A DNA stretch of 32,000 bases, taken from positions 1,605,014 through 1,637,013 of the forward strand of contig NZ_JAFN01000001.1 in assembly GCF_000526155.1 (NCBI RefSeq), written 5' to 3'. A program made the position numbers and the translations under genes. How positions within the stretch are numbered: position 1 is the stretch's first letter; each line of letters starts with the position of its first letter. The notes under the pieces were generated by a model. That model was not told the origin of the DNA. It did not search any database and saw nothing but the letters and a program-made list of their open reading frames with translations. Positions 1,254-30,640 of this stretch are shown piece after piece. This stretch comes from Deferrisoma camini S3R1 (GTDB taxonomy: Bacteria; Desulfobacterota; Deferrisomatia; Deferrisomatales; Deferrisomataceae).

Positions 1254-2428
<1,175 letters not shown>

Positions 2429-2447
2429 GAAGCTCTTCGTAACTTCG

Positions 2448-2489
2448 GTCTACGGTCGTCAGTCTACGGTCGTCGGTCTACGGTCGTCG
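2448..2489. repeat. 3 x 14-nt tandem repeat GTCTACGGTCGTCR
   Basis: Units at 2448-2461, 2462-2475 and 2476-2489, followed by the GGGGCCTTCGGCCC hairpin. Related heptamer strings (NNGACCG / CGACCAA) occur at 775-800, 12913-12940 and 24135-24165. Confidence 0.85.
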
Positions 2490-2524
2490 GTCTGGGGCCT
2501 TCGGCCCGCTAGCCGCCCAGCGGA

Positions 2525-2914
2525 CCGAAGGCCCTAGCCCCGTTCGCGCCCAATCGATCGGTCGGCGGAGCATACCAGGAACCGCGCCAGAGCTAGGGGG
2601 CATGGGGGCTGCTGGAGAGCCGCGTGCGGCTCCTTCGCTCGCCGCGCAGCGCCTCCAACGTTCGCACCGTGAGTTCGTTCGGGCCCCGCCGAACGGTCAT
2701 GAAGCCACCGCTGATGCCCCTGTGCCTGCGCGGCGAATCTCGATGCCCGGCTTCGCGCGCGGCCGGAAGCAGACCCCATGCCCCGCACGCAGCGCAGGGT
2801 TTGGCAACAACCCGAGAGCCGCCTGGCCGCCTAGCAGCCCAGCCGCCCGGCGGGCCGAAGGCCCTAGCCCCCTTCGCGCCCAAGCGATCGGCTGGCGGAG
2901 CATACCAGGAACCG
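2525..2914. repeat. Degenerate family-A foldback (about 2596-2812) bracketed by a 60-bp direct repeat
   Basis: The direct repeat CCGAAGGCCCTAGCCCC.TTCGCGCCCAA.CGATCGG..GGCGGAGCATACCAGGAACCG occurs at 2525-2584 and 2855-2914 with 4 mismatches. The interior, CGCTCGCCGCGCAG...GTCATGAAGCC...GTGCCTGCGCGGCGAATCTC.ATGCC.GGCTTCGCGC, matches 1068-1190 of copy 1. Confidence 0.7.
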
Positions 2915-3000
2915 GGCCGCCGTGCACGGCATCGATGCGTCACCAGAGCCGCACGATAAAACCCTGTCTCTCGACGCAGCGCCCTCCCCACCCGCCCCAG

Positions 3001-3014
3001 CGTCACTACTGACG
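3001..3014. promoter_or_regulatory. Palindrome CGTCA-CTAC-TGACG, candidate enhancer-binding-protein site (UAS)
   Basis: Perfect 5-bp arms centred about 75 bp upstream of the -24 element. The half-site GCGTCAC recurs at 2937-2943. Confidence 0.3.
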
Positions 3015-3079
3015 TATTTTGTGTGCTTCCGTCCTCCGTTTCGCCCTCTTCCATCCCTTTCGCCCCTTGAAACAGGTTT

Positions 3080-3096
3080 TGGCACGACCCCTGCAT
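3080..3096 (+). promoter_or_regulatory. sigma54 (-24/-12) promoter
   Basis: TTGGCACGACCCCTGCAT. GG is at 3081-3082 and GC at 3093-3094, which is the exact 12-nt register. It matches TGGCAC-N5-TTGCA with one mismatch. It lies about 60 nt upstream of the ppsA-like ATG (3155), and an NtrC-type activator is encoded at 21587-23047. Confidence 0.7.
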
Positions 3097-3154
3097 CCCT
3101 TCGCTCCCACCGGTTTTCTGTGTTTCGGTCCCCCTGGAAAAAAGGAGGCACACC

Positions 3155-4996
3155 ATGGCGAACGGCGGCGGCTTTCCCAGTCCCCACGACGTCTTCACGA
3201 TCCCCGGAACCGAGGGGTGGGAGCGGATGTACCCCTACCATTACCGGTTCGGGGCCGACGATCCCGAGCGCAAGGAGTACGAGGCGTCGATGTTCTGGTT
3301 CTACGACGGCCTCCACTACCCGGAACCGATCTACCCCTTCGACATGATCTGGGACGAGGCGTGGTTCCTGGCCCTGTCCCAGTACAACACCCGGATCTTC
3401 ATCGTGCCCCCCGCCCTGGGTGTGGACCACCGCATCATCAACGGCCGCATCTACATCACCCCGGTGCCGGTGAAGGACCCGTCCGAGATCCCCGCCCGGG
3501 TCGAGCATTTCATGAAGCGGGCCGGGTACTACTACGAGAACTGGGACGAGCTCTACGCCAAGTGGGAAACCAAGATGAAGGGTGTGATCGAGGAGCTGGA
3601 CAAGCTCACGATCCCCGAGCTGCCCGACATGGAGGAGGACTCGGTCGTGTTCGACGCCGTGGGCCGGAGCAGCGGCTACGAGCTGCTCACCGCCTACGAC
3701 CGGCTCATCCAGCTCGGCATCCTGGCCTGGCAGTACCACTTCGAGTTCCTGAACCTGGGGTATGCGGCGTACGTGACGCTCCTGGACTTCTGCCAAAAGG
3801 CCTTCCCCGGGATCCCCCTGCAGCGGGTCACCCAGATGGTCAGCGGCATCGACGTGATCCTGTACCAGCCCGACGAGGAGCTCAAGGGCCTGGCCCGCCT
3901 GGCCTGCGAGCTGGGCATCGAGGACGAGATCCTCGTGGAGCGCTCGGTGGAGGAGCTGTTCGAGGAGCTCAAGAAGACGAACGACGGCCGCCTGTGGGAG
4001 CAGCGGTTCGAGAAGGCCAAGTACCCCTGGTTCTACATCTCCACCGGCACGGGCTGGTTCCACCACGACCCGGCCTGGATCGACGAACTGGAGATCCCCC
4101 TGAGCTCCATCCGCATGTACATCCAGAAGCTCAAGAAGGGCGAGTCCCTGGAGCGGCCCCTGGGTGAGCTCAAGCGGGAGCGGGACCGGATCATCTCGGA
4201 GTACCGGGAGCTGCTGGGCTCGGACGACGACCGGGAGATGTTCGACAACTTGGTGGGCACGGCCCAGAGGGTGTTCCCGTACGTGGAGAGCCACCTGTTC
4301 TACGTGGAGCACTGGTTCCACTCGATCTTCTGGAACAAGATGCGCGAGGTGTCGCGCCGCTTCGTGACGGCCGGGTTCTGGGACGACGTGGAGGACATCT
4401 GGCTCCTGAACCGCCACGAGATCAAGCAGGCCATGTGGGACATGGTCACCGCGTGGGCCACCGGCACCCAGCCCATGGGCAGGCTCCACTGGGGACCGGA
4501 GATCGCCTGGCGCAAGCAGGTGATGGAGAAGTTCAAGGAGTGGACGCCCCCTCCGGCCGTGGGCACCCCCCCCGAGACGATCACCGAGCCGTTCACCATC
4601 GTGCTGTGGGGCATCACGAGCGAGACCATGGCCGCCTGGTCCAAGGGCAAGGAGGCCGGCGAGGGCCCGGTGCGGGAGCTCACCGGGTTCGCGGGAAGCC
4701 CCGGCGTGGTGGAGGGCCCGGCCCGGGTCTGCCGCACCGTGTCCGAGATCTCCACGCTGCAGGACGGCGAGATCCTGGTGTGCCCCACCACGAGCCCCAG
4801 CTGGGCGCCGGCGTTCACCAAGATCAAGGCCGCGGTCACCGACGTGGGCGGCATCATGTGCCACGCCGCCATCGTGTGCCGGGAGTACGGGCTGCCCGCC
4901 GTGGTGGGCACGGGCAACGCCACCCAGGCGTTCAAGACCGGTCAGAAGATCCGTGTGGACGGCAACACCGGCGTCGTCTCGATCGTCGAGGAGTAG
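3155..4996 (+). CDS. ppsA: Phenylphosphate synthase subunit A-like protein (PEP-utilizing enzyme, phosphohistidine swivel domain; 613 aa, about 70 kDa)
   Basis: AAAGGAGG SD. The C-terminus GSPGVVEGPARV...ILVCPTTSPSWAPAFTKIKAAVTDVGGIMCHAAIVCREYGLPAVVGTG is the PEP-utilizer mobile His domain. There is no ATP-grasp part. The size and architecture match the 70-kDa subunit described for Thauera aromatica phenylphosphate synthase. Context: ppsB-like and ppc-like genes nearby. Confidence 0.8.
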   Translation: MANGGGFPSPHDVFTIPGTEGWERMYPYHYRFGADDPERKEYEASMFWFYDGLHYPEPIYPFDMIWDEAWFLALSQYNTRIFIVPPALGVDHRIINGRIYITPVPVKDPSEIPARVEHFMKRAGYYYENWDELYAKWETKMKGVIEELDKLTIPELPDMEEDSVVFDAVGRSSGYELLTAYDRLIQLGILAWQYHFEFLNLGYAAYVTLLDFCQKAFPGIPLQRVTQMVSGIDVILYQPDEELKGLARLACELGIEDEILVERSVEELFEELKKTNDGRLWEQRFEKAKYPWFYISTGTGWFHHDPAWIDELEIPLSSIRMYIQKLKKGESLERPLGELKRERDRIISEYRELLGSDDDREMFDNLVGTAQRVFPYVESHLFYVEHWFHSIFWNKMREVSRRFVTAGFWDDVEDIWLLNRHEIKQAMWDMVTAWATGTQPMGRLHWGPEIAWRKQVMEKFKEWTPPPAVGTPPETITEPFTIVLWGITSETMAAWSKGKEAGEGPVRELTGFAGSPGVVEGPARVCRTVSEISTLQDGEILVCPTTSPSWAPAFTKIKAAVTDVGGIMCHAAIVCREYGLPAVVGTGNATQAFKTGQKIRVDGNTGVVSIVEE

Positions 4997-4999
4997 GGA

Positions 5000-6100
5000 A
5001 TGAGCCGAAAAGACATCGCGTGGTTCGAGGAGTGTCGCAAGGACGACACCCCGCTGGTGGGGGGCAAGTGCGCCAGCCTCGGGGAGCTGCTCGCGGCCGA
5101 GATCCGGGTGCCGCCCGGGTTCGCCGTGACCACCGAGGCCTACTACCACTTCCTCACCCGGGCCGGCATCAAGGAGCCCATCTGCAAGGTGCTGCGCCGC
5201 ATCCGCGACGGGGTGCCGGTGCACGAGGTCGGTGAGGAGACCCGCCGCATGGTGCTGGAGGCCCCGATCCCCGCGGAGGTGGAGGCAGGCATCCGGGCCT
5301 CCTACCGGGCCCTGTGCGACCGGTGCGGGGTGGAGGACCTGCCGGTGGCCGTTCGCTCCAGCGCCACCCTCGAGGACATGGCGGACGCCTCCTTTGCCGG
5401 TCAGCAGGACACCTACCTCTGGGTCCGAGGGGAGGACGAGGTGGTGGACAAGGTCAAGCGCTGCTGGGCCAGCCTGTTCAGCGACCGGGTCATCGCCTAC
5501 CGGGAGGAGAAGGGGTTCACCCACGAGAACGTGCGGATCTCGGTGGGCGTCCAGAAGATGGTCCGGGCCCGGACCTCGGGGGTCCTGTTCACCCTGAACC
5601 CGGTGAACGGCGACCGCTCCAAGGTGGCCATCAACGCCGCCTGGGGCTTTGGCGAAGGGGTGGTCTCGGGCGACATCACCCCCGACGACTTCCTGGTGGA
5701 CAAGGTCACCTTCGACATCTTGCGGCGCACCGTGGTGCCCAAGCCCGAGGCCTACCTGCTGGACCCAGCGGCAGGACGGGTGTGCCGGATGGGGGTGCCC
5801 GAGGCCGACCGGGCCAAGCCTTCCCTGTCGGACGACGAGATCCAGGAGCTCACCCGGCTCGCCCGCCGGATCGAGAAGCACTACGGCCGGCCCATGGACG
5901 TGGAGTGGGCCGTGGACGCCGACCTCCCCTTCCCGGAGAGCATCGTGACCCTCCAGGCCCGGCCGGAGACGGTGTGGTCCCAGAAACCGGCCCGAACCGT
6001 GGCGAAGGAGAAGCCCAAGTCGGCCCTGGACGCCATCGTGGGCAAGCTGCTGGCCGGGGTGCCGGTCCAGAACAAGGCCCAGACCGTGGGGGGCGTGTGA
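5000..6100 (+). CDS. ppsB: Phenylphosphate synthase subunit B-like protein (PEP synthase N-terminal ATP-binding domain; 366 aa, about 40 kDa)
   Basis: Starts 4 nt after the ppsA stop. The N-terminus WFEECRKDDTPLVGGKCASLGELLAAEIRVPPGFAVTTEAYYHF and the motif VAVRSSATLEDMADASFAGQQDTYL are the PPDK_N/PEP-synthase nucleotide-binding signature. Confidence 0.8.
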   Translation: MSRKDIAWFEECRKDDTPLVGGKCASLGELLAAEIRVPPGFAVTTEAYYHFLTRAGIKEPICKVLRRIRDGVPVHEVGEETRRMVLEAPIPAEVEAGIRASYRALCDRCGVEDLPVAVRSSATLEDMADASFAGQQDTYLWVRGEDEVVDKVKRCWASLFSDRVIAYREEKGFTHENVRISVGVQKMVRARTSGVLFTLNPVNGDRSKVAINAAWGFGEGVVSGDITPDDFLVDKVTFDILRRTVVPKPEAYLLDPAAGRVCRMGVPEADRAKPSLSDDEIQELTRLARRIEKHYGRPMDVEWAVDADLPFPESIVTLQARPETVWSQKPARTVAKEKPKSALDAIVGKLLAGVPVQNKAQTVGGV

Positions 6101-6546
6101 AAACCGATTCCGCCTCGGCCCGCCCCCAGGGGGCACCGGTGCGGATCGAAGGGGTGGTCTCCTCGGGCAGGGGCGAGGCGGCGGGGTTCGTGGACCTCCC
6201 CTGGGTGGTCGAACAGGTGCGGGAACGGGCGGGGTTCCGCCCGTTCCCGGGCACCCTGAACATCCTGGTGCGCGATCCCGCTTCCCTGGCGCGGTGGCAA
6301 CGGGTCCGCCGGGTTCCGGGGTTCCTCCTGGAGCCCGGCGACCCTTCCTTTTGCTCGGCCGCCTGCTACCCGGTGCTCGTGGCCGACCGGGTTCCCGGCG
6401 TGATCGTGCGTCCCCACATCCCCTCCTACCCCGAAGGCCTGGTCGAGGTGCTCGCGGCCACGTGCCTCCGACAGGAGCTCGGCCTGCGGGACGGGGACCG
6501 GTGCTCCCTGGCCTTATATCAATTTGCGATCAAGATGAGCTCATAG
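6097..6546 (+). CDS. Archaeal-type (CTP-dependent, DUF120/RibK family) riboflavin kinase homolog, 149 aa
   Basis: The GTG start at 6097 overlaps the ppsB stop (GTGTGA). VRIEGVVSSGRGEAAGFVDLPWVVEQVRERAGFRPFPGTLNILV and GVIVRPHIPSYPEGLVEVLAATCLRQELGLRDGD align motif for motif with Methanocaldococcus MJ0056 RibK as I remember it (IEGEVVSGLGEG..F...GFEPYEGTLNLKL ... GAIVVP..T.H...IIEIIAP.KLRE.F.LKDGD). The last ~10 codons (LYQFAIKMSS) are encoded by the MITE-like element that begins at 6512. Confidence 0.8.
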   Translation: MKTDSASARPQGAPVRIEGVVSSGRGEAAGFVDLPWVVEQVRERAGFRPFPGTLNILVRDPASLARWQRVRRVPGFLLEPGDPSFCSAACYPVLVADRVPGVIVRPHIPSYPEGLVEVLAATCLRQELGLRDGDRCSLALYQFAIKMSS

Positions 6547-6741
6547 GGGGGCGATTTGGGGACCGTTGGTCCTCCGCCGGAGAAGACGGCCTAGCCGAAG
6601 CCGCTACGGCTCGGTCTGCTGCGGCGCGTGAGAGCACGCGCCGCGGGCGCTCCCCTGCGCCGAGCGGCTTGAACGGCTCGGCCGGAGCGCTCCGGGCCAA
6701 CGGCCCCCAAATCGCTGGCTTCGGATGCGACCTGGCATTAC
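6512..6741. mobile_element. Foldback MITE-like element, family B, copy 1
   Basis: 230 bp. It is near-identical in inverted orientation to 20277-20505. Termini are CCTTATATCAATTTGCGATCAAGATGAGCTCATAGGGG and, in revcomp, GTAATGCCAGGTCGCATCCGAAGCC. The interior is a long imperfect palindrome (GCGATTTGGGG.CCGT.GGTCC arms; central CTGCGGCGCG-N8-CGCGCCGCGG with one mismatch; the copy at 20277-20505 has perfect CTGCGGCGCG/CGCGCCGCAG arms). Confidence 0.75.
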
Positions 6742-8498: not shown

Positions 8499-8505
8499 GG
8501 CAGTA

Positions 8506-8599
8506 ACGGGTGACGGGTGACGGGTGACGGGTGACGGGTGACGACCTGCGACCTGCGACCTGCGACCTGCGACCTGCGACCTGCGACCTGCGACCTGCG
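8506..8599. repeat. Two abutting heptamer tandem arrays: 5 x ACGGGTG (8506-8540) and 8 x ACCTGCG (8544-8599)
   Basis: Perfect copies counted directly from the sequence. They lie between the LysR start codon and the candidate LysR box, inside the divergent promoter region. Confidence 0.95.
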
Positions 8600-8608
8600 A
8601 CCAACAGC

Positions 8609-8623: not shown

Positions 8624-8712
8624 ACATCAGCGCAAAACATATGATTGGACCCCGCCTCCACCGGGCGCTAGAGTCGCAACCCATCAAACGATTTTTTGCG
8701 AAGGAGGGAGAC

Positions 8713-10128
8713 ATGGACCTCAGGGACTTCATCGCCCGCTGCGAGGAAGAGGGGCAGCTCAAGCGGATCGGCGCCGAGGTGGACTGGGACCTGGAGCTCA
8801 GCCACGTGGCCAAGCTCGTGGAAGAACAGGAGGGGCCGGCCCTCCTGTTCGAGAACGTCAAGGATTACGACAGCCCCGTGTTCACGGGTGCGTTCGCCAC
8901 CACCCAGCGGCTGGCCCTGGCCCTGGACAAACCCACCCATCTGAGCCTGTGCGAGCTCACCCGCGAGTGGATGAAGCTCGCGGTGGACAAGATCATCCCG
9001 GCCCAGGAGGTGGAGTCGGGACCGGTGTTTGAAAACGAGTACAGCGGCGACGACGTGGACATCTTCCGGTTCCCCTCGCCCCGGTTCTTCGAGAAGGACG
9101 GCGGCCGCTACATCGGCACGGCCGTGTTCCTGGTGACCCGCGACCCCGAGACCGGCGGGATCAACCTGGGCACCTACCGCATGCAGGCCCAGGAGAAGAA
9201 CCGCATCGGGGTCCAGATCCTCAAGGGCAAGCGGGGCGACCGCATCCTGAAGAAGTACAAGAAGGCCGGGCAGAAGATGCCCGCCTGCGTGGTGATCGGG
9301 TGCGATCCCCTGCTCATGCTCGCGGGAAGCGCCATGGTGGCCAAGGCCAGCGAGTACGACGTGGTGGGGTCGCTCCGGGGCGAGCCGGTCACGGTCACCC
9401 AGGGCAAGGTCACCGGCCTTCCGATCCCGGCCGACGCGGAGATCGTGCTCGAGGGCTGGATCGACCCCGACGATCTGCGGCCCGAGGGGCCCTTCGGCGA
9501 GTACACCGGGTACTACACCGACGAGCTGTTCCACCCCATTCCCAAGCCCTCCATGGTGGTCGAACGCGTGTACCACCGGAACAAGCCGATCCTGTGGGCC
9601 ACGTCGGTGGGCCGCCCGGTCACCGACAACCATTGGATGCTGGCGTTCGTGCGCGGGGCCACCCTGTGGACCGAGCTGGAGAAGATGCGGATCCCCGGGA
9701 TCGAGTCGGTGTACCTGCCGCCCGAGGCCTGCGGCCGGTTCTGGGCCATCGTGAGCGTGCGCCAGATGTACCCCGGCCACGCCAGCCAGGTGGCGGCCGC
9801 GGTGGTGGCCAGCAACACCTGCACCTACGGCACGAAGGGGGTGATCGTGGTGGACCACGACGTGCGCGCCGACGACCTGCCCCGGGTCTGGTGGGCCCTG
9901 GCCACCCGTTTCGACCCGGCCCGGGACACCCAGATCATCCAGCGCGGCCGCTCCACGCCCTTGGACCCGGCCCTGGACCCCGACTCCAACAAGCTCATCA
10001 CCTCCCGCATCCTGCTGGACGCCACCGTTCCGTTCGAGTGGGAGCAGAAGCCGGTGGAGGTGGCCCTGGTGCCCGAGGTGGTGGAGCGGATCAAGAAACG
10101 CTGGAAGGAGCTGGGGCTGGACGACTGA
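8713..10128 (+). CDS. UbiD-family (prFMN-dependent) carboxylase, phenylphosphate carboxylase alpha/beta-type subunit (471 aa)
   Basis: ORF 8641..10128 trimmed to the ATG at 8713, preceded by AAGGAGGGAG. Contains MDLRDFIARCEEEGQLKRIGAEVDWDLELSHV, GGINLGTYRMQ and the active-site loop EGPFGEYTGYYTD, all typical of UbiD. The ~53 kDa size fits PpcA/PpcB. Confidence 0.85.
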   Translation: MDLRDFIARCEEEGQLKRIGAEVDWDLELSHVAKLVEEQEGPALLFENVKDYDSPVFTGAFATTQRLALALDKPTHLSLCELTREWMKLAVDKIIPAQEVESGPVFENEYSGDDVDIFRFPSPRFFEKDGGRYIGTAVFLVTRDPETGGINLGTYRMQAQEKNRIGVQILKGKRGDRILKKYKKAGQKMPACVVIGCDPLLMLAGSAMVAKASEYDVVGSLRGEPVTVTQGKVTGLPIPADAEIVLEGWIDPDDLRPEGPFGEYTGYYTDELFHPIPKPSMVVERVYHRNKPILWATSVGRPVTDNHWMLAFVRGATLWTELEKMRIPGIESVYLPPEACGRFWAIVSVRQMYPGHASQVAAAVVASNTCTYGTKGVIVVDHDVRADDLPRVWWALATRFDPARDTQIIQRGRSTPLDPALDPDSNKLITSRILLDATVPFEWEQKPVEVALVPEVVERIKKRWKELGLDD

Positions 10129-10467
10129 GAGAACTTCCTGAGAAGCCCCTCCAGGCCCCCTGCGGGGCCCGGTACGAGGAAAGGTAACGCTTGGTGGTCC
10201 TGGGGCCATCGGCGGCGGGGCATGGGTTTCAGGGGACAGGAGCCAGAAGAGGGGCAAAGACACTGGGGCCAAAGCGGCGTCGTGGGACCACGCCCTGCCC
10301 ACTGACGTCTGTCCTCTGACTCCTGATCCCCATGCCCCCGGACTGTGAGGTGGAGGCGAGGAGGCATGGGGATGCCTAGAAGGCGCGGGAATCCGAGAGG
10401 TTTTCAGACCTCCCAACGTCCCAGCCTCCCAGCGTCCTAGCGGAAGTTACATGAAAGGAGGCATTCC
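10129..10467 (+). repeat. Mosaic intercistronic element, copy 1
   Basis: Modules in order: GGCCCCCTGCGGGGCC hairpin (10154-10169); a diverged leader-like segment; GGACTGTGAGGTGGAGGCGAGGAGG box (10340-10364); CCTCCCAR octamers (10409-10440); GGAAGTTAC (10442-10450); AAGGAGG SD; ATG at 10468. Modules are shared with 11011-11230 and 30389-30640. Confidence 0.8.
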
Positions 10468-11010
10468 ATGGCCTACGACATGATGGATGCGATCGAGCGG
10501 GCCAAGCGCGTGAAACTGGTGGTCCTGGACGTCCACGGCGTGCTCACGAACGGCATGGTCCTGTTCAACGAGGACGGCGTGAAGTTCCAGGTGTTCCACC
10601 ACGACGACGGGTTCGGGGCCAACGTGCTGATGATGTCGGGCATCGAGGTGGCGCTGCTCACCCGCAAGTCCAAGATCGTGTTCGCCCGGGCCCAGGAGGT
10701 GGGCATCAAGCGGGTGTACGCGGCCAAGGAGAAGTGGGCCAAGATGGAGGAGATCATGGCCGAGATCGGCATCGGCCCCGACGAGGTGTGCTACGTGGGC
10801 GACGAGGTCATCGACCTGGGCGCCATGCGCCGGGTGGGATTCGCGGTGTGCCCGGCCAACGGGGTCCCCGAGGTCCGGGACGCGGCCCATCTCATCACCC
10901 ACAGGGCCGGCGGCGAGGGCATGCTGCGGGAGCTGGCCGAGTTCATCCTCAGGGCCCAGGGCCGATGGGGCGCCCTGGTGGAGAAGATCGCGAACATGGG
11001 CTGGGGCTGA
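10468..11010 (+). CDS. ppcD: KdsC-like HAD phosphatase, phenylphosphate carboxylase delta-subunit candidate (180 aa)
   Basis: Collinear with E. coli KdsC as I remember it (KLVVLDVHGVLTNG, DGFG, GDEVIDLGAMRRVGFAVCPANG, GGEGMLRE). Its size and its position between two UbiD-type subunits fit the 18-kDa phosphatase-family subunit of the Thauera enzyme. Motif I is DVHG instead of DVDG. Confidence 0.75.
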   Translation: MAYDMMDAIERAKRVKLVVLDVHGVLTNGMVLFNEDGVKFQVFHHDDGFGANVLMMSGIEVALLTRKSKIVFARAQEVGIKRVYAAKEKWAKMEEIMAEIGIGPDEVCYVGDEVIDLGAMRRVGFAVCPANGVPEVRDAAHLITHRAGGEGMLRELAEFILRAQGRWGALVEKIANMGWG

Positions 11011-11230
11011 GGCCTCAGAGCCCCGGCTCCACGACGAAAGCTCCATCAGGCCCCTGCGGGGCCGTCTAGAGACTAGAAACTAGAAACTAGACCATGCTTT
11101 CCGGACCGTGAGGTGGAGACAAGGAGGCGTGATGATTTCTAGAACGCATGGGAATCCGGCAGGATTCCAAGCCTTCTAGCCTCCTGGCATTCCAGCCTTC
11201 TAGCGGAAGTTACATGAAAGGGAGATCCCC
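11011..11230 (+). repeat. Mosaic intercistronic element, copy 2
   Basis: Modules in order: GGCCCCTGCGGGGCC hairpin (11049-11063); CTAGAAACTAGAAACTAGA tandem; GGACCGTGAGGTGGAGACAAGGAGG box (11103-11127); CTTCTAGC/CCTCCTGG/ATTCCAGC octamers (11165-11204); GGAAGTTAC (11205-11213); AAGGGAG SD; ATG at 11231. Confidence 0.8.
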
Positions 11231-12679
11231 ATGGCGTACCGCTACTACAAGGACAACCGCGAGTTCATCGAGGCCCTGCGGGCCACCGGAGACCTGGTCA
11301 CGGTGGAGCCCGAGGTGGACTGGGACCTGGAGCTCGGGGCCATCGTCCGGCGGGTGTGCGAGCTCCAAGGCCCGTCGCCCCACTTCAAGAAGATCAAAGA
11401 CTACCCCGGCTTCGAGGCCCTGGGCGCGCCCTTGGCCACCTACCGGAAGCTGGCGGTGTCCCTGGGGCTTCCGGCCGACACCCCGATCCCGGAGATCGGC
11501 AGGGCCTATGTGGAGCGCACCGAGCGGGGCGAGCCCCTCAAGCCCAGGGTGGTGGACCGCAGCCGGGCCCCGTGCAAGCAGAACGTGTGGACGGGCGACG
11601 ACGCCAACCTGTTCAACCTGCCCGCGCCCATGGTCCACGACGGCGACGGCGGCCGGTACCTGGCCACCTGGCACATGGTGGTGGCCAAGGACCCGGACAC
11701 CGGCGAGGTGAACTGGGGCATGTACCGCCAGATGGTGTTCGACGAGAAGACCATGGTGGGCCCGGTGCTGCCGTTCTCCGACATGGGCAAGATGTTCTTC
11801 AACAAGTACGTGCCCCGAAACCAGCCCATGCCGTTCGCCACGGTGATCGGCATGGACCCGCTATCCGGCGTGGCCGCCTGCGCGCCCTCGCCGATCCCGG
11901 AGGACGAGTTCGCGAGCCTCCTCATGGGCGAGGCGGTGGAGGTGGTGAAGTGCGAGACCTCGGACCTGCTGGTGCCGGCCCACGCCGAGATCATCATCGA
12001 GGGCGAGGTGCTGCCGGGCGTCTGGCTCGAGGAGGCGCCGTTCGGGGAGTACACCGGCTACCGCACCTCGCCCCGGGAGCGGCGCACCGTGTACCGGATC
12101 CGGGCGATCACCTTCCGGGACAACCCGATCCTCACCGTGTCGAACATGGGCGTGCCCACGGACGAGGGCCAGCTCCTACGATCGTTCTCCCTGAGCCTCG
12201 AGATGGAGAAGCTCCTGCGTAGCCAGGGCATCCCGATCACCGGCGTGTACATGTGGCCCGAGTCCACCCACCACATGGTGGTGATCGGCACCCGCCACGC
12301 CTACACGGGCATCGCCCATCAGATCGCCAACCTGGTGTTCGGCAGCAAGCTGGGCCCCTGGTTCCACATGGTGGTGGTGGTGGACGAGAACACCGACATC
12401 TACAACAAGAACCAAGTGATCCACGCCCTGGCCACCCGGTGCCATCCGGTCAACGGCATCCACATCTACGAGAACGACGTGGGAACTCCCTTGAACCCCT
12501 ACGCCACCCCGGCCGAGCGACGCCTGGGCAAGGGCGCCAAGGTGCTGTTCGACTGCCTGTTCCCGCGGGACTGGCAGCCCTCTGACATCCCGATCCTGGT
12601 GGCGTTCGACACGGTCTACCCCCAGGAGGTCCGGGACAAGGTGTTGGCCAACTGGAAGGCATACGGGTTTTCCGAATAA
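11231..12679 (+). CDS. UbiD-family carboxylase, second phenylphosphate carboxylase alpha/beta-type subunit (482 aa)
   Basis: Contains FIEALRATGDLVTVEPEVDWDLELGAIVRR, NWGMYRQM and EAPFGEYTGYRTS. It is a paralog of 8713-10128. Confidence 0.85.
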   Translation: MAYRYYKDNREFIEALRATGDLVTVEPEVDWDLELGAIVRRVCELQGPSPHFKKIKDYPGFEALGAPLATYRKLAVSLGLPADTPIPEIGRAYVERTERGEPLKPRVVDRSRAPCKQNVWTGDDANLFNLPAPMVHDGDGGRYLATWHMVVAKDPDTGEVNWGMYRQMVFDEKTMVGPVLPFSDMGKMFFNKYVPRNQPMPFATVIGMDPLSGVAACAPSPIPEDEFASLLMGEAVEVVKCETSDLLVPAHAEIIIEGEVLPGVWLEEAPFGEYTGYRTSPRERRTVYRIRAITFRDNPILTVSNMGVPTDEGQLLRSFSLSLEMEKLLRSQGIPITGVYMWPESTHHMVVIGTRHAYTGIAHQIANLVFGSKLGPWFHMVVVVDENTDIYNKNQVIHALATRCHPVNGIHIYENDVGTPLNPYATPAERRLGKGAKVLFDCLFPRDWQPSDIPILVAFDTVYPQEVRDKVLANWKAYGFSE

Positions 12680-12767
12680 GCCCCGTGAGGCCCCTGCGGA
12701 GCCCTACAACGGGGAAGGGTAACGTTTGTTGGTCCGAAGCCTTCACGCCGGAGGCATGGGGCCGACG

Positions 12768-12964
12768 GTTCAGGAGACAGATTCCAGCGGACAGAAGACA
12801 GGAAATCCCGAAAAGCAGTTTGGTTTCCCGGGGGGATCCTCTCGACACACCGAAGATCCTTCTCCCTGTCTACTGACTTCTGAATTCTGGCCCCTGATAT
12901 GGCCGAAGGCCCAGACCGACGACCAACGACCAACGACCGAAGTTACCGGTAAGGAGTCCGAACC
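12768..12964 (+). repeat. ~190-bp conserved leader element, copy B (runs up to the start codon at 12965 and contains its SD)
   Basis: See copy A (754-943, inverted). It ends ...CGACCAACGACCAACGACCGAAGTTACCGGTAAGGAGTCCGAACC-ATG. Confidence 0.85.
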
Positions 12965-13219
12965 ATGGCTGAATACGACGCGTTTTTCGAGAACCTGCAG
13001 GAGGTCCCCCAGGACGAGGAGATCCGCCTCGTGATCCGGGACCTCACCCCGGGCCGGACCAAGTACCGGTGCCAGGTGGTCCGGGCCCAGGTGTCGAGTG
13101 AGCCTTCCAAGTACCCGGAAAGGCTGTGGCCCCGCCTGGGCCGGGGGCAGTGGGTGGGCGAGCCCTGGTCGATCCGGGTGGTGGAGGAGGTGGACCCCAT
13201 CCCGGAAGCGTGGCGGTAG
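12965..13219 (+). CDS. Small protein (84 aa, about 10 kDa), candidate phenylphosphate carboxylase gamma subunit
   Basis: TAAGGAG SD and strong GC3 bias. Its size and its position directly after the UbiD-type subunits fit the 10-kDa subunit of the Thauera enzyme. I cannot verify sequence similarity from memory. Confidence 0.5.
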   Translation: MAEYDAFFENLQEVPQDEEIRLVIRDLTPGRTKYRCQVVRAQVSSEPSKYPERLWPRLGRGQWVGEPWSIRVVEEVDPIPEAWR

Positions 13220-15306: not shown

Positions 15307-15393
15307 AGGCCTCCCCGACTTGTGGCGTCGGCGCAGCGCTCAGAGATCGCGGAGGTTTTTGGCTTTCCAGCTTCCTAGCCTCGGAGAGGACCT

Positions 15394-20279: not shown

Positions 20280-20505
20280 TACCAAGTCGCATTCGAAGCC
20301 AGCGATTTGGGAGCCGTCGGCCCGGGGCGCGACGGCCGAGCCGTTCAAGCCGTTCGGCGCAGGGGAGCGCCTGCGGCGCGTGCTCTCTCGCGCCGCAGCA
20401 GACCGAGCCGTAGCGGCTTCGGCGAGGCCGTCTTTTCCAGCGGAGGACCGACGGCCCCCAAATCGCCCCTCTATGAGCTCATCCTGATCGCAAATCGGCA
20501 TGAGG
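20277..20505. mobile_element. Foldback MITE-like element, family B, copy 2
   Basis: The left end TGATACCAAGTCGCATTCGAAGCC includes the stop codon of the GHMP-like gene. The right end is GATCGCAAATCGGCATGAGG. It is an inverted near-duplicate of 6512-6741. Confidence 0.75.
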
Positions 20506-20559
20506 TCCCCCCTGCGGGGAGCCCGGAGCTCCCCCTTCGCAAGGAAAGGAGGAAGGCGC

Positions 20560-23862: not shown

Positions 23863-24117
23863 CTACGCTGCCTGCCCCTCCAGGCCCTCCAGGTACTTAC
23901 GGATCCGCACGGCTCCCGTGAGATAGTTCGAATCCTCCAGCACCAGGATCGGTAGATTCCTCTCGGCCACGTTCACCAGCCCGTGCCAGGCCAGGTGGGC
24001 CAGGGCGTCCGGGTTTTCCGGCCCCAGCTCCTCCACCGCCACGCCCAGGGCGGCCAGATCCACCCGCTCCTTCACGTACTCGCACTTCTCACACCCAACC
24101 TTCGTGAACAGCGTCAT
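23863..24117 (-). CDS. Glutaredoxin/NrdH-like small thioredoxin-fold protein (84 aa)
   Basis: The N-terminus MTLFTKVGCEKCEYVK carries a CxxC motif after the first beta strand. CAGGAGG SD. Located between nrdD and nrdG. Confidence 0.65.
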   Translation of the reverse strand: MTLFTKVGCEKCEYVKERVDLAALGVAVEELGPENPDALAHLAWHGLVNVAERNLPILVLEDSNYLTGAVRIRKYLEGLEGQAA

Positions 24118-24216
24118 GGGATCCTCCTGTAACTCCGGTCTTCGGTCGACGGTCTACGGTCGCCGGTCGGGGCGGCTTTCCGAGCCGCCCGGGGGCCCCA
24201 CCCGACGGGGCCGGGC

Positions 24217-30335: not shown

Positions 30336-30340
30336 TCTCG

Positions 30341-30388
30341 GCTGGAAGGCTGGGATGCTGGGATGCTGGAAGGCTAGAAGGCTGGAAC
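30341..30388 (+). repeat. Tandem octamer array, 6 units: GCTGGAAG GCTGGGAT GCTGGGAT GCTGGAAG GCTAGAAG GCTGGAAC
   Basis: Counted directly from the sequence. It begins 5 nt after the stop codon at 30335. It carries five GGA motifs in the plus-strand sense. Confidence 0.9.
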
Positions 30389-30640
30389 GCCGAGAACTTC
30401 CCTTATGTCCCATATGTCCCAGAGGGTCCAATAGACCTTCCATGTAACTTCCGCTAGGACGCTGGGAGGCTTGAAAACCTCCATGATCTCCCAGCGTTCT
30501 AAGCATCACCACGCTTCTTTGGCACCACCTCACGGTCTCGGGCGGCATGGAGCCTGGTGGAGCGCCCACCTAACGGGCCGGGCTACCCGGAATTTCTCTA
30601 GTTTCTAGTCTCTGTCCGGCCGGCCCGGGCTGCGTGTTGC
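30389..30640 (-). repeat. Mosaic element, copy 3 (inverted; not followed by a gene in its own orientation)
   Basis: The revcomp contains AGAGACTAGAAACTAGAGAAATTCC, GAGACCGTGAGGTGGTGCC, CCTCCCAGCGTCCTAGC and GGAAGTTACATGGAAGG. This is the same module order as 11040-11230. Confidence 0.75.

Follow-up and report, generated by a model that had tools for sequence, protein, structure and literature searches.

The window analysed here, a stretch of 32,000 nt from Deferrisoma camini S3R1, carries the ppc operon of phenol-degradation genes, and both gaps flanking its KdsC-like delta gene are filled by repeat copies. These two spacers (10129-10467, before the delta subunit, and 11011-11230, before the second UbiD-like subunit) align in register over 139 nt at 76% identity, a similarity well above chance, and share the ordered modules that the original prediction had described in them. 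From the stop codon the order is, 5' to 3', a REP-type GC hairpin, then a long element (spacer 1) or a CTAGAAA heptamer array (spacer 2), and then a core of 115-140 nt. Within the core, a purine box is followed by an apical hairpin and then by octamers, GGAAGTTACATGRAAGG and the Shine-Dalgarno (SD) sequence. Purines dominate the left half, and the right half is taken up by the octamers, a G-poor array prone to slippage, (C[C/G]TCC[C/T]AG)n, which ends in GGAAGTTACATGRAAGG. The features of spacer 1 are as follows:

10131..10153, plus strand: post-stop junction box GAACTTCCTGAGAAGCCCCTCCA, related in degenerate form to GAAGTTACATGGAAGCCCCATCA, the box found 5' of the REP hairpin in the L072, L073, L070 and L020 copies
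10154..10169, plus strand: REP-type GC hairpin GGCCCC-CTGC-GGGGCC, without U tract, its CTAC tag degenerate (CGGTAC)
10170..10340, plus strand: long-hairpin repeat element GGTAACG..TTGGTCC..GGGGCATGGG...CCCCATGCCCC (from alignment; the long hairpin is predicted)
10328..10457, plus strand: core copy w1 (nhmmer E = 1e-37)
Parts of w1, plus strand, from sequence: purine box 10340-10369; apical hairpin 10387-10414; octamer array 10409-10441; 3' box 10442-10458
10454..10470, plus strand, from sequence: SD AAAGGAGG at 10454-10461, overlapping the end of the 3' box, then the ATG of the delta (KdsC-like) subunit at 10468

Alignment showed that spacer 1 is made wholly of repeats. Its element of about 170 nt at 10170-10340 is a diverged copy of a family found at 12704-12912, at 798-951 on the minus strand and in L073, and is common to spacer 3 of the operon and the yajC upstream region. 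Spacer 2 has these features:

11049..11063, plus strand, from sequence: REP-type GC hairpin GGCCCC-TGC-GGGGCC, with GTCTAG in the tag position (degenerate)
11064..11092, plus strand: heptamer array CTAGAGA/CTAGAAA of 3.7 units, one unit shorter in the sister strain, also found 5' of the core in L022 and w3/L020
11090..11220, plus strand: core copy w2 (sequence comparison, profile search)
Parts of w2, plus strand: purine box 11103-11134; apical hairpin GGAATCC-GGCA-GGATTCC 11151-11168; octamer array 11172-11204; 3' box 11205-11221
11217..11233, plus strand, from sequence: SD AAAGGGAG at 11217-11224, overlapping the 3' box, then the ATG of the second UbiD-like subunit at 11231

Both start codons were confirmed by comparison: all homologues of the delta subunit have 180 aa at 100% coverage, and all orthologues of the second UbiD-like subunit have 482 aa. 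The GC hairpins, predicted some 25-40 nt past the stops, begin 26 and 39 nt after them. The CCTCC strings noted at 10409, 10425 and 11180 all fall inside the octamer arrays, and the octamers can pair with the purine boxes, to which they are complementary. The 3' box, GGAAGTTACATGAAAGG, supplies the true SD as claimed, since it overlaps the SD in both spacers, and each ATG comes 6 nt after the SD. The purine boxes were also present, and only the two GGAGG strings ascribed to each required correction: spacer 2 has one exact GGAGG, the other string being GGAGA, and its sister-strain orthologue carries AAAGAGG in the purine box instead of GGAGG. A closing helix AACUUCC/GGAAGUU joining the stop and the 3' box of spacer 1 was considered and rejected; it is absent in spacer 2 and in the other copies, and is weakened in the sister strain.

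The same modules occur elsewhere in the window. The exact GAAGTTAC was found five times against 0.14 expected, a count reached in 0 of 100 shuffles, and either it or GGAGTTAC does precede the starts at 12965 and 24117 (minus strand), as had been noted. Tandem Repeats Finder placed 7-/8-nt arrays at 10409-10442, 11066-11091, 12914-12938, 8506-8602, 2388-2493, 24136-24169 and 30340-30387. A third full core copy, on the minus strand at 30437-30552, had been overlooked. The additional sites are:

30389..30634, minus strand: composite insertion in which core copy w3 (30437-30552) is combined with CTAGAAA and (GGGACATAT)n arrays, reverse to both flanking plus-strand genes
12689..12964, plus strand: spacer 3 of the ppc operon, before the gamma subunit (repeat comparison, tandem-repeat scan, alignment)
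Parts of spacer 3, plus strand: REP hairpin with CTAC tag 12689-12707; long-hairpin element 12704-12912; GACCRAC heptamers 12914-12938; GAAGTTAC 12939-12946; then the SD
2388..2504, minus strand: tgt leader with a heptamer array, GAAGTTAC at 2439-2446 and an octamer array that stops 7 nt short of the ATG (2380)
24129..24169, minus strand: heptamer array, then GGAGTTAC, before an 84-aa gene (ATG 24117); in its place, the sister strain carries a module of octamer type
15337..15383, plus strand: degenerate core remnant, GGAGGTTTTTGG followed by CTTTCCAG CTTCCTAG, directly 5' of the SD of an AMP-ligase gene (ATG 15394)

With the three core copies of the window, at least 14 non-orthologous copies were collected, the others lying in related contigs of MAG JALUTY01 / metagenome Ga0256830 and of MAG JAADGT01. 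The set comprises copies with an intact 3' box plus nhmmer matches nearby, in about 135 kb of related sequence, and its size and the share of start-adjacent copies are biased by this reliance on the 3' box. Copies were found before unrelated genes, in 3' regions and in reverse orientation. Thus the modules, originally described as a feature of the ppc operon, are indeed present there and yet are not specific to it, belonging instead to repeat families that are dispersed in a lineage of the Deferrisomatales. In seven copies before unrelated genes the 3' box runs into the SD, and the ATG follows 3-18 nt past the box. The purine run that ends a sense, gene-adjacent core is the gene's SD, so that the delta and second UbiD-like subunits owe their translation-initiation regions to the repeat.

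The REP palindrome GGCCCC(C)TGCGGGGCC is present at 10154, 11049 and 12689, with related copies in other loci, and the hairpins begin 9 to 39 nt past the stop codons of three ppc genes in a row. Directly 3' of the stem, CTAC (the complement of GTAG) is present in spacer 3, in L020 (two copies) and in L069, L070, L072 and L073; it is degenerate in spacers 1 and 2. Members of the GTAG-tagged REP superfamily lie downstream of ORFs (Di Nocera et al. 2013, PMC3733652). The likeness to REP/BIME mosaics, already suggested by the original prediction, was borne out by the ordered modules and by this mostly tagged, stop-proximal hairpin family (GGCC...GGCC, then CTAC). As in REP/BIME systems, a short GC-rich extragenic palindrome just 3' of ORFs, followed in most family copies by the GTAG complement, is joined with other conserved motifs in ordered mosaics: spacers 1 and 2 keep the same order, and the composite of long element and core recurs in L073. 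Here too the palindrome is plausibly transcribed and would form an RNA hairpin rather than a terminator. Enterobacterial BIMEs carry their REP units as alternating Y/Z pairs. Such pairs were not encountered in the ppc spacers, each of which has a single REP that is unrelated in sequence to the enterobacterial families, and the mosaic differs further in its 7-8-nt tandem arrays and its SD-bearing terminal box.

Pneumococcal BOX elements have the structure boxA-(boxB)n-boxC, with an internal unit of about 45 nt. Like BOX, Correia and ERIC elements, the repeats studied here are small, non-autonomous and intergenic, with conserved end modules, variable internal tandem units, presence/absence polymorphism and hairpin potential; Correia and ERIC elements can alter mRNA fate (reviewed in PMC2229807 and PMC3184786). 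They differ in that the internal unit is 8 nt long and an SD lies at the end. Moreover, the core ends have only CCATG...CATGG in common (predicted to pair at a mean P of about 0.5-0.7), and no target-site duplication was visible at the w3 junctions.

Comparison between strains showed that the modules have moved recently. At the orthologous site, three sister contigs (L081, L082 and L084) lack the w3 composite of 246 nt and have 61 nt of other sequence. Upstream of the 84-aa gene, strains differ in having a heptamer-type or an octamer-type leader module, a swap that has left GGAGGATCCCATG in place. Four arrays change by whole units between strains 96-97% identical (ACGGGTG from 5.4 to 2, CGACCTG from 8.7 to 1.7, CTAGAAA from 3.7 to 2.7 and GACCRAC from 3.6 to 2.6); the unit number of the w1 and w2 octamer arrays is unchanged. 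In the sister strain, two substitutions in the REP hairpin of spacer 1 are uncompensated. The spacers diverge by 2.4%, more than codon positions 1+2 (1.1%) and less than position 3 (4.6%), an intermediate value suggestive of some constraint. Also active in this genome is an unrelated TIR element of 227 nt.

Orthologous ppc operons have kept the gene order, with delta subunits 73-79% identical to that of the window. The corresponding spacers of relatives are 54-254 nt long and carry other 7-8-mer arrays at the same places, so that arrays occupy the same operon positions in four genomes although their unit sequences differ. None of these orthologous spacers in other Deferrisomatales has the GGAGG/CCUCC arrangement. 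In the relative L077, (TAACTGA)3 itself lies 5' of the delta SD.

Within 45 nt of a start we counted 23 start-proximal 7/8-mer arrays, several of them homologous and hence non-independent copies. On the sense strand G is below C in 21 of the 23 (mean G 0.22, C 0.42), a bias that would mean less if leaders of this lineage were C-rich in general. In Beggiatoaceae, Cyanobacteria and Bacteroidetes, TAACTGA heptamers are known to form direct repeats 5' of start codons (MacGregor 2015, PMC4679880). The arrays described here resemble these and other long simple sequence repeats (units of 5-11 nt) in being forward tandem 7-nt units of variable copy number, a few nt from the starts of unrelated genes. 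They differ in having many unit sequences and also 8-mers, in usually retaining the SD rather than replacing it, and in being embedded in larger modules, often with a complementary partner arm.

Three other readings of the spacers were rejected. The hairpins are not intrinsic terminators, because the U tract is absent: no GC hairpin with a U tract was found in any ppc spacer. A promoter (TTTTCAAG ... GTTACAT) was dismissed because its spacing shifts with octamer number and because a sigma-70 promoter scan of the spacers found no site. A small ORF (MVMPRT.GNPGGFQASQ...) was discarded because of early stops in L013 and L072, the missing ATG in L073, and a frame that shifts with the variable octamer number.

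Folding predictions were compared with shuffled sequence. The spacers have z-scores of -1.0 and -2.2, marginally better than shuffles, and the core copies fold somewhat better than theirs (z -1.9 to -2.9). RNAalifold on the 14 copies gave a weak consensus of -11 kcal/mol, to which the covariation term contributes only -0.83 kcal/mol. Covariation scores of the candidate helices were 0.115 against 0.110 in shuffles, and 0.088 against 0.101; none of those tested (P1 CCAUGC/GCAUGG, Ha GGAAUCC/GGUUUUC, Hb GGGAGG/CCUCCC and the 3' hairpin) covaried above shuffles. By eye Ha looked compensated in w2, L065a and L013, short of significance. A search of Rfam returned no match at the gathering score, and the sole match at E <= 1 was a spurious match of the long hairpin to a miRNA hairpin. 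When the minimum free energy (MFE) of the two strands was compared as a test of selection on RNA, the sense strand had no advantage and the antisense strand folded as well or better. Selection on structure at the RNA level is thus unproven, and the hairpins could matter only at the DNA level or not at all. In spacer-length and whole-core contexts the predicted partner of the octamers is the purine box and not the SD; the exception is the isolated w1 core, whose MFE structure pairs octamer CCUCC with the SD.

These results bear on the mechanism that had been proposed for the spacers, an SD-sequestering switch in which the CCUCC octamers would be paired to the true SD in the off state and to the upstream GGAGG-type purine box in the on state, with temperature, a ligand or a protein setting the balance. 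CCUCC is present in 13 of the 14 copies, and RNA thermometers and riboswitch platforms also combine CCUCC near the SD with a second purine-rich competitor upstream. Predictions for spacer 1 have the expected two states, the octamers pairing with the purine box and leaving the SD unsequestered in the full spacer, and GCCUCC pairing with SD GGAGGC at P 0.56-0.73 when the 5' end is truncated; the prediction for L009 resembles this behaviour. The remaining evidence argues against a switch. CCUCC-SD pairing is about 0 in full spacer 1, removal of the left arm barely alters SD accessibility, and SD:octamer pairing is predicted in only two of seven start-adjacent copies and never in spacer 2. The purine box lacks GGAGG in 8 of 14 copies, and copies also lie reversed and away from starts. 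In contrast to thermometers and riboswitches there is no conserved helix, no covariation and no curated family match, z-scores are weak, and the arrangement is not kept across copies or in the orthologous spacers of relatives. We therefore abandoned the anti-SD / anti-anti-SD interpretation: a signal-responsive switch in the ppc spacers is unlikely, and the specific pairing scheme is very improbable. By analogy with the ssRNA-binding-protein platform proposed for the Beggiatoaceae repeats, for which one CSD per 7 nt was discussed (PMC4679880), the G-poor 7-8-nt arrays or the UUACAUGGAAGG box might instead bind S1, a cold-shock protein or CsrA and so modulate initiation. The position of the arrays immediately 5' of the SD or start, their orientation bias, the heptamer register and the (TAACTGA)3 of L077 would agree with such a role. 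The 3' box resembles the CsrA SELEX consensus, RUACARGGAUGU, and UUACAUGGAAGG may be a candidate site for CsrA. However, the arrays are gained and lost between close strains, and their unit sequences are wholly different between loci and genomes, so that no sequence-specific binder fits all of them; we regard protein binding as improbable.

Two further explanations concern the repeats as such. The modules may form a processing and stabilisation cassette, in which long imperfect hairpins of a purine arm and a tandem-array arm would serve as RNase III substrates, or the AU-richer GAAGUUACAU as an RNase E site, while REP hairpins protect the new 3' ends and the stoichiometry of the ppc subunits is uncoupled. 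A precedent is the (ATCTTTC)n hairpin of the H. influenzae hmw1A 5'-UTR, a hairpin with a simple-sequence-repeat arm that is cut by RNase III (PMC12721329). As there, a pyrimidine-rich tandem array and a G-rich arm are predicted to form a long hairpin, and repeat number varies between strains; here the order of the arms is reversed, and ppc encodes no phase-variable surface protein. Complementary or inverted arrays are predicted as long spacer-spanning helices at several independent loci, namely the w2 core, L022, the L078 delta spacer (z = -6.0) and the L077 gamma spacer (z = -3.0), and U tracts are missing from the REP hairpins. Yet the helices of w1 and w2 are short and interrupted (for w1 on its own the prediction is weak), folding of the antisense strand is equally good, and the array partners of the lysR-ppc region, in the lysR leader, are no better than shuffles (z = +0.4). 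We consider processing doubtful; cleavage would be expected to generate discrete 5' ends at GAAGUUAC or inside those helices, with 3' ends falling at the REP hairpins. Slightly less doubtful is that the spacers are purely selfish or neutral DNA, REP/MITE-like elements and slippage products in tolerant intergenic space, start-adjacent only because the purine-rich end recombines at or substitutes for the SD, and with no RNA role beyond harmlessness. The presence/absence and module-swap polymorphisms, the unit-number changes between close strains, the uncompensated hairpin changes, the lack of covariation and of a sense-strand folding advantage, and the activity of the TIR element all suit this explanation. 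It does not readily account for the strong orientation bias of start-proximal arrays, their recurrence at the same operon positions in four genomes with differing units, a spacer divergence slower than that of third codon positions, or the fact that the repeat is the sole SD source for two subunits of an enzyme complex.

The best reading is that the ppc spacers are a BIME-like mosaic repeat that donates the ribosome-binding site and a G-poor leader. That they are a mosaic repeat and donor of this kind, with no dedicated switch, we hold with considerable confidence. The explanation as a whole, in which the two spacers are concatenated dispersed repeat modules, specific to the Deferrisomatales lineage and recently mobile, and have an RNA role, is on balance probable; what the modules would do at the RNA level is put forward more tentatively, and we would not give it even odds. 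The modules would be transcribed inside the ppc polycistronic mRNA and would act constitutively, with no response to a signal. The REP hairpin, lacking a U tract, may be a barrier that protects the 3' end. The core would fold on itself, with the octamers paired to the purine box, so that the SD and the AU-richer GAAGUUACAUG box would lie at the hairpin's foot, within a leader that is poor in G and weakly structured. Array length and module choice, rather than ligand or temperature, might then determine how strongly each cistron is expressed.

A broader generalisation, which we judge unlikely, is a leader-module system throughout the Deferrisomatales: slippage-prone, G-poor 7-8-nt arrays ending in a GAAsTTAC box would be repeatedly placed immediately 5' of the SD or start, often with a G-rich array complementary to them just past the preceding stop codon. 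Such modules would be exchangeable and tunable in length, and would set expression cistron by cistron through translation or processing. Array position is kept across genomes while unit sequence turns over, a pattern that would point to composition and periodicity, not sequence, as the target of selection.

In annotation, the ppc spacers belong with lineage-specific mosaic repeats, and the labels riboswitch and thermosensor of phenol metabolism should be avoided. That enzyme subunits receive their SD from a repeat family illustrates how mobile or slippage-prone DNA can rewrite translation-initiation regions within an operon, and the rapid swapping of array modules directly 5' of starts teaches the same lesson. 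Start-adjacent heptamer arrays, previously described from Beggiatoaceae and cyanobacteria, are hereby extended to a high-GC, deltaproteobacteria-like lineage, whose natural array-length variants provide material for the idea of tuning by repeat number.

The window (G+C 68.5%) carries a phenylphosphate synthase/carboxylase (ppc) cluster, which also includes a third UbiD paralogue and a UbiX-like flavoprotein. The features needed here are as follows.

3155-4996, ppsA-like gene
5000-6100, ppsB-like gene
ending at 10128, first UbiD-like subunit
10454-10461, SD of the delta subunit, AAAGGAGG, overlapping the final bases of the common GGAAGTTACATGAAAGG box
10468-11010, delta subunit, HAD/KdsC-like
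11217-11224, SD of the second UbiD-like gene, AAAGGGAG, likewise overlapping the final bases of the common box
11231-12679, second UbiD-like subunit
12965-13219, gamma subunit (Pfam Phenyl_P_gamma)

The closest public sequence was a MAG contig (JALUTY01 / Ga0256830_1000545) with 96-97% nucleotide identity across the ppc genes; farther delta-subunit homologues (73-79% identity) were labelled Deferrisomatales. Constant orthologue lengths of 180 and 482 aa confirmed the start codons of the delta and second UbiD-like genes. By contrast with these two, the first UbiD-like gene probably does not begin at the ORF start of 8641 (region examined, 8641-8720): orthologues have 469-470 aa, not 495, and the ATG falls within a box, CTTATAC..ATATGATTGGACCCC, shared with L077 and L078, the orthologous operons of two other Deferrisomatales. 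This box matches TTATATGAATTGACCCC upstream of the same gene in both relatives and is probably a LysR site or a -35 region.

The spacers before delta (spacer 1, 10129-10467) and before the second UbiD-like gene (spacer 2, 11011-11230) had been described in the original prediction as sharing ordered modules, and every item was found in its place. Their 3' parts align over 139 nt with 76% identity. The window contains five exact copies of GAAGTTAC, with 0.14 expected (0 of 100 shuffles reached five); as predicted, this sequence precedes the gamma-subunit start at 12965, with the variant GGAGTTAC before an 84-aa gene at 24117 (minus strand), and it is also present in the tgt leader. Two GGAGG-type strings per purine box had been expected, and on this point spacer 2 fell short with one exact GGAGG only. 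A third full copy of the shared core, beyond the two predicted, was found on the minus strand at 30437-30552.

A scan for GGAAGTTACATGRAAGG in one genome per species gave mostly chance single matches; MAG JALUTY01 had seven, spread over six of its contigs, and MAG JAADGT01 ("Deltaproteobacteria bacterium") had two. Scanning metagenomes yielded another two copies, both from the metagenome that JALUTY derives from, and a profile search of the collected loci revealed more, diverged and truncated. The core is represented by at least 14 non-orthologous copies of 115-140 nt, with the consensus CCATGCCCCC GGACCGTGAGGTGGAGGCGAAGAGGCATGGTGATGCCTAGAACGC-TGGGAATCCGGGAGGTTTTCAAG-(C[C/G]TCC[C/T]AG)2-5-CGGAAGTTACATGGAAGG; its left half looks like a decayed purine-rich partner of its own octamer array. 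At L065 4782-5003 (= L049), a locus outside the window, a full copy is followed in tandem by a 5'-truncated one. The two copies are joined where GGAAGAG of the first one's 3' box meets GTGATGCC of the second, which suggests recombination between the two purine-rich boxes.

In seven copies (those of spacers 1 and 2, L009, L013, L022, L023, and the second L065 copy) an ATG lies 3-18 nt beyond the 3' box, so that the SD is either provided by the repeat or adjoins it; the genes downstream are mutually unrelated. Two ppc subunits take their SD from the core. Elsewhere, what comes after the 3' box is a REP module (L072, L073), the tandem second core (first L065 copy), or a terminator and then a convergent tRNA gene (L020). 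A putative 68-aa membrane protein with an SD of its own starts 35 nt beyond the L006 core, and the 30437-30552 copy is oriented opposite to both of its plus-strand neighbors, a 69-aa ORF and wecB.

By sequence, the rest of both spacers is repeat DNA as well. The stop-proximal hairpin belongs to a family, GGAAGCCCC..-GGCCCC-TGC-GGGGCC-CTAC-AACGG..GGTAACG, most copies of which bear a CTAC tag, degenerate in spacers 1 and 2, that is the complement of GTAG, the tag defining the largest REP superfamily, whose members lie mostly downstream of ORFs (PMC3733652). Within spacer 1, 10170-10340 is a diverged copy of a long-hairpin element that recurs in spacer 3 (before gamma), ahead of yajC, and in L073; in L073 it adjoins a core in just the arrangement of spacer 1. 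In L022, L020, and the minus-strand copy, the core is preceded by the CTAGAAA heptamer array that is also present in spacer 2. The "ordered modules" are composite units of dispersed repeats, which bears out the suspected mosaic, BIME-like organization.

Repeat DNA was also observed elsewhere in the window. A 154-nt repeat of the long-hairpin family (798-951 / 12759-12912) has 94% identity, and the 190-aa yajC ORF appears overlong owing to its upstream repeat copy (YajC domain, residues 108-183 only). The 775-nt tgt-ppsA divergent region (2380-3155) consists nearly throughout of repeat modules, with duplicated blocks (2511-2588 / 2841-2918, 91%; 1029-1139 / 2597-2707), AGCCGCCC octamers, and, ahead of tgt, arrays of heptamers and of octamers; no SD was recognizable for tgt after the octamer array. 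At 30336-30430 a G-rich octamer array, (GGCTGGAA)6, begins right after the stop of the 69-aa basic ORF, downstream of a cold-shock gene, followed by GAACTTCC (near reverse complement of the GGAAGTTAC box) and (TCCCATATG)2.6. The order G-rich array, GAACTTCC, AAGCCCC recurs in the sister strain and in post-stop spacer 1.

The original prediction proposed that CCUCC can pair either with the SD or with upstream GGAGG decoys, as in a translational switch. CCTCC was kept in 13 of 14 copies, with neighboring units CGTCC, CTTCT, or CATCC. Eight of the 14 have no decoy GGAGG in the purine box, where the consensus is GAAGAGG, and GGAGG was lost from the sister-strain orthologue of spacer 2. The RNAalifold consensus was -11.0 kcal/mol with a covariation term of -0.83. 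For specified helices (CCAUGC/GCAUGG; GGAAUCC/GGUUUUC or, alternatively, GGGAGG/CCUCCC; and a 3' hairpin), covariation equaled the shuffled expectation in 14 sequences of 81% identity, a set of limited power: 0.115 vs. 0.110 (reached by 162 of 500 shuffles) and 0.088 vs. 0.101 (444 of 500). Spacer 1 folded no better than shuffles (z = -1.0); values were -2.2 for spacer 2 and -1.9 to -2.9 for the cores. In most cases the reverse complement folded equally well or better, so nothing indicates selection on sense-strand RNA. In full spacer 1 the octamers were predicted to pair with the purine box, not with the SD (P 0.00-0.09), and GCCUCC-SD pairing was predicted only for RNAs truncated at 10328 or 10387 (P 0.56-0.73); CCUCC-SD pairing was never predicted in spacer 2. 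Among the seven start-adjacent copies the SD was predicted to pair with the octamer array in two, and removal of the left arm changed predicted SD accessibility little. Three other Deferrisomatales genomes retain the ppc gene order with spacers of 54-254 nt; a diverged core precedes delta only in the closest, L079, the other two having different leaders. The switch logic can be drawn for spacer 1 and is not conserved across the element or the operon; we consider SD sequestration very improbable.

The relatives' spacers are also full of 7-8-nt tandem arrays with different units. In L077 (2297-2395) (AACCAAC)n grades into (TAACTGA)3 before the delta SD, and CGTCCCAA octamers lie upstream of the second UbiD gene; L079 has (GCTGGGAA)8 and (CCGCCCAG)4. 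In L078 (3890-3986) a post-stop (GTCCGTK)4 and a (CAACGGA/CAACTGA)4 before the SD are inverted and span the spacer. The window and related loci contain 23 arrays with a period of 7, 8, or a multiple that lie no more than 45 nt before a start. In 21 of them the sense strand has less G than C (binomial P = 3e-5; several are homologous, not independent), with means of 0.22 and 0.42. The arrays are prone to slippage, and their orientation makes the sense strand the G-poor one. This pattern matches the TAACTGA repeats, present as such in L077, that directly precede start codons in Beggiatoaceae and cyanobacteria, for which binding of S1, Csp, or CsrA has been discussed (PMC4679880); a protein-binding leader is quite unlikely here. 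G-rich post-stop and start-proximal arrays were predicted to form a long helix across the spacer (z = -6.0 in L078, -3.0 in L077), resembling the H. influenzae hmw 5'-UTR, where a G-rich arm is the partner of (ATCTTTC)n, the hairpin is cut by RNase III, and expression is tuned by the number of repeats (PMC12721329). A processing and stabilization cassette, which overlaps our main reading in part, is unlikely.

These modules turn over between strains; the spacers are pieced together from dispersed repeats that were mobile recently. The 246-nt composite bearing the minus-strand core is missing at the orthologous site in three sister contigs, which have 61 nt of other sequence instead. The leader of the 84-aa gene, next to nrdD, is swapped (24117-24210 vs. 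sister contig L081 4243-4384): the window has a heptamer array and then GGAGTTAC, the sister strain an octamer-type degenerate core. Both have GGAGGATCCCATG, and the break lies immediately 5' of it. Comparison of the two strains shows whole-unit differences in four tandem arrays of the ppc region; one of these differences, of 70 nt, is in a block (ACGGGTG)n(CGACCTG)n. Outside arrays, spacers 1-3 diverge by 2.4% vs. 1.1% at codon positions 1+2 and 4.6% at position 3 of adjacent genes (P about 0.01 each way), an intermediate level that suggests weak constraint. That the spacers are neutral or selfish DNA is, of the alternatives, marginally the most probable, and still unlikely.

That block, at 8506-8602 between the divergent LysR-type gene and the ppc operon, consists of perfect adjacent heptamer arrays, (ACGGGTG)5.4 and (CGACCTG)8.7, against only about 2 and 1.7 units in the sister strain. 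Read on the minus strand it is (CAGGUCG)n(CACCCGU)n-GUUACUGCC-AUG and lies in the lysR leader, where no SD precedes the ATG at 8499. A 227-nt element with terminal inverted repeats of about 19 bp (GCGATTTGGG..CCCAAATCGC) occurs in opposite orientations at 20284-20506 and 6512-6738 (90% identity); the former copy is precisely absent in L081, L082, and L083 and is a clean MITE-like insertion polymorphism.

In our main reading the modules would share the operon's transcript and act constitutively. The REP hairpins, which have no U tract or terminator signature, would serve as 3'-end barriers. The core would fold on itself, presenting the SD and the AU-richer GAAGUUACAUG box within a leader that is poor in G and has little structure, and the output of each cistron would be set by module choice and array length, not by a signal. 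These are new element families, confined to a single lineage, but of kinds already known (REP/BIME-type mosaics, MITE-like repeats, start-proximal short tandem arrays). What is unusual is the SD-bearing end of the core and the exchange, between close strains, of array modules directly upstream of starts. Tentatively, and at rather long odds, these may form a lineage-wide system of exchangeable, length-tunable leader modules.
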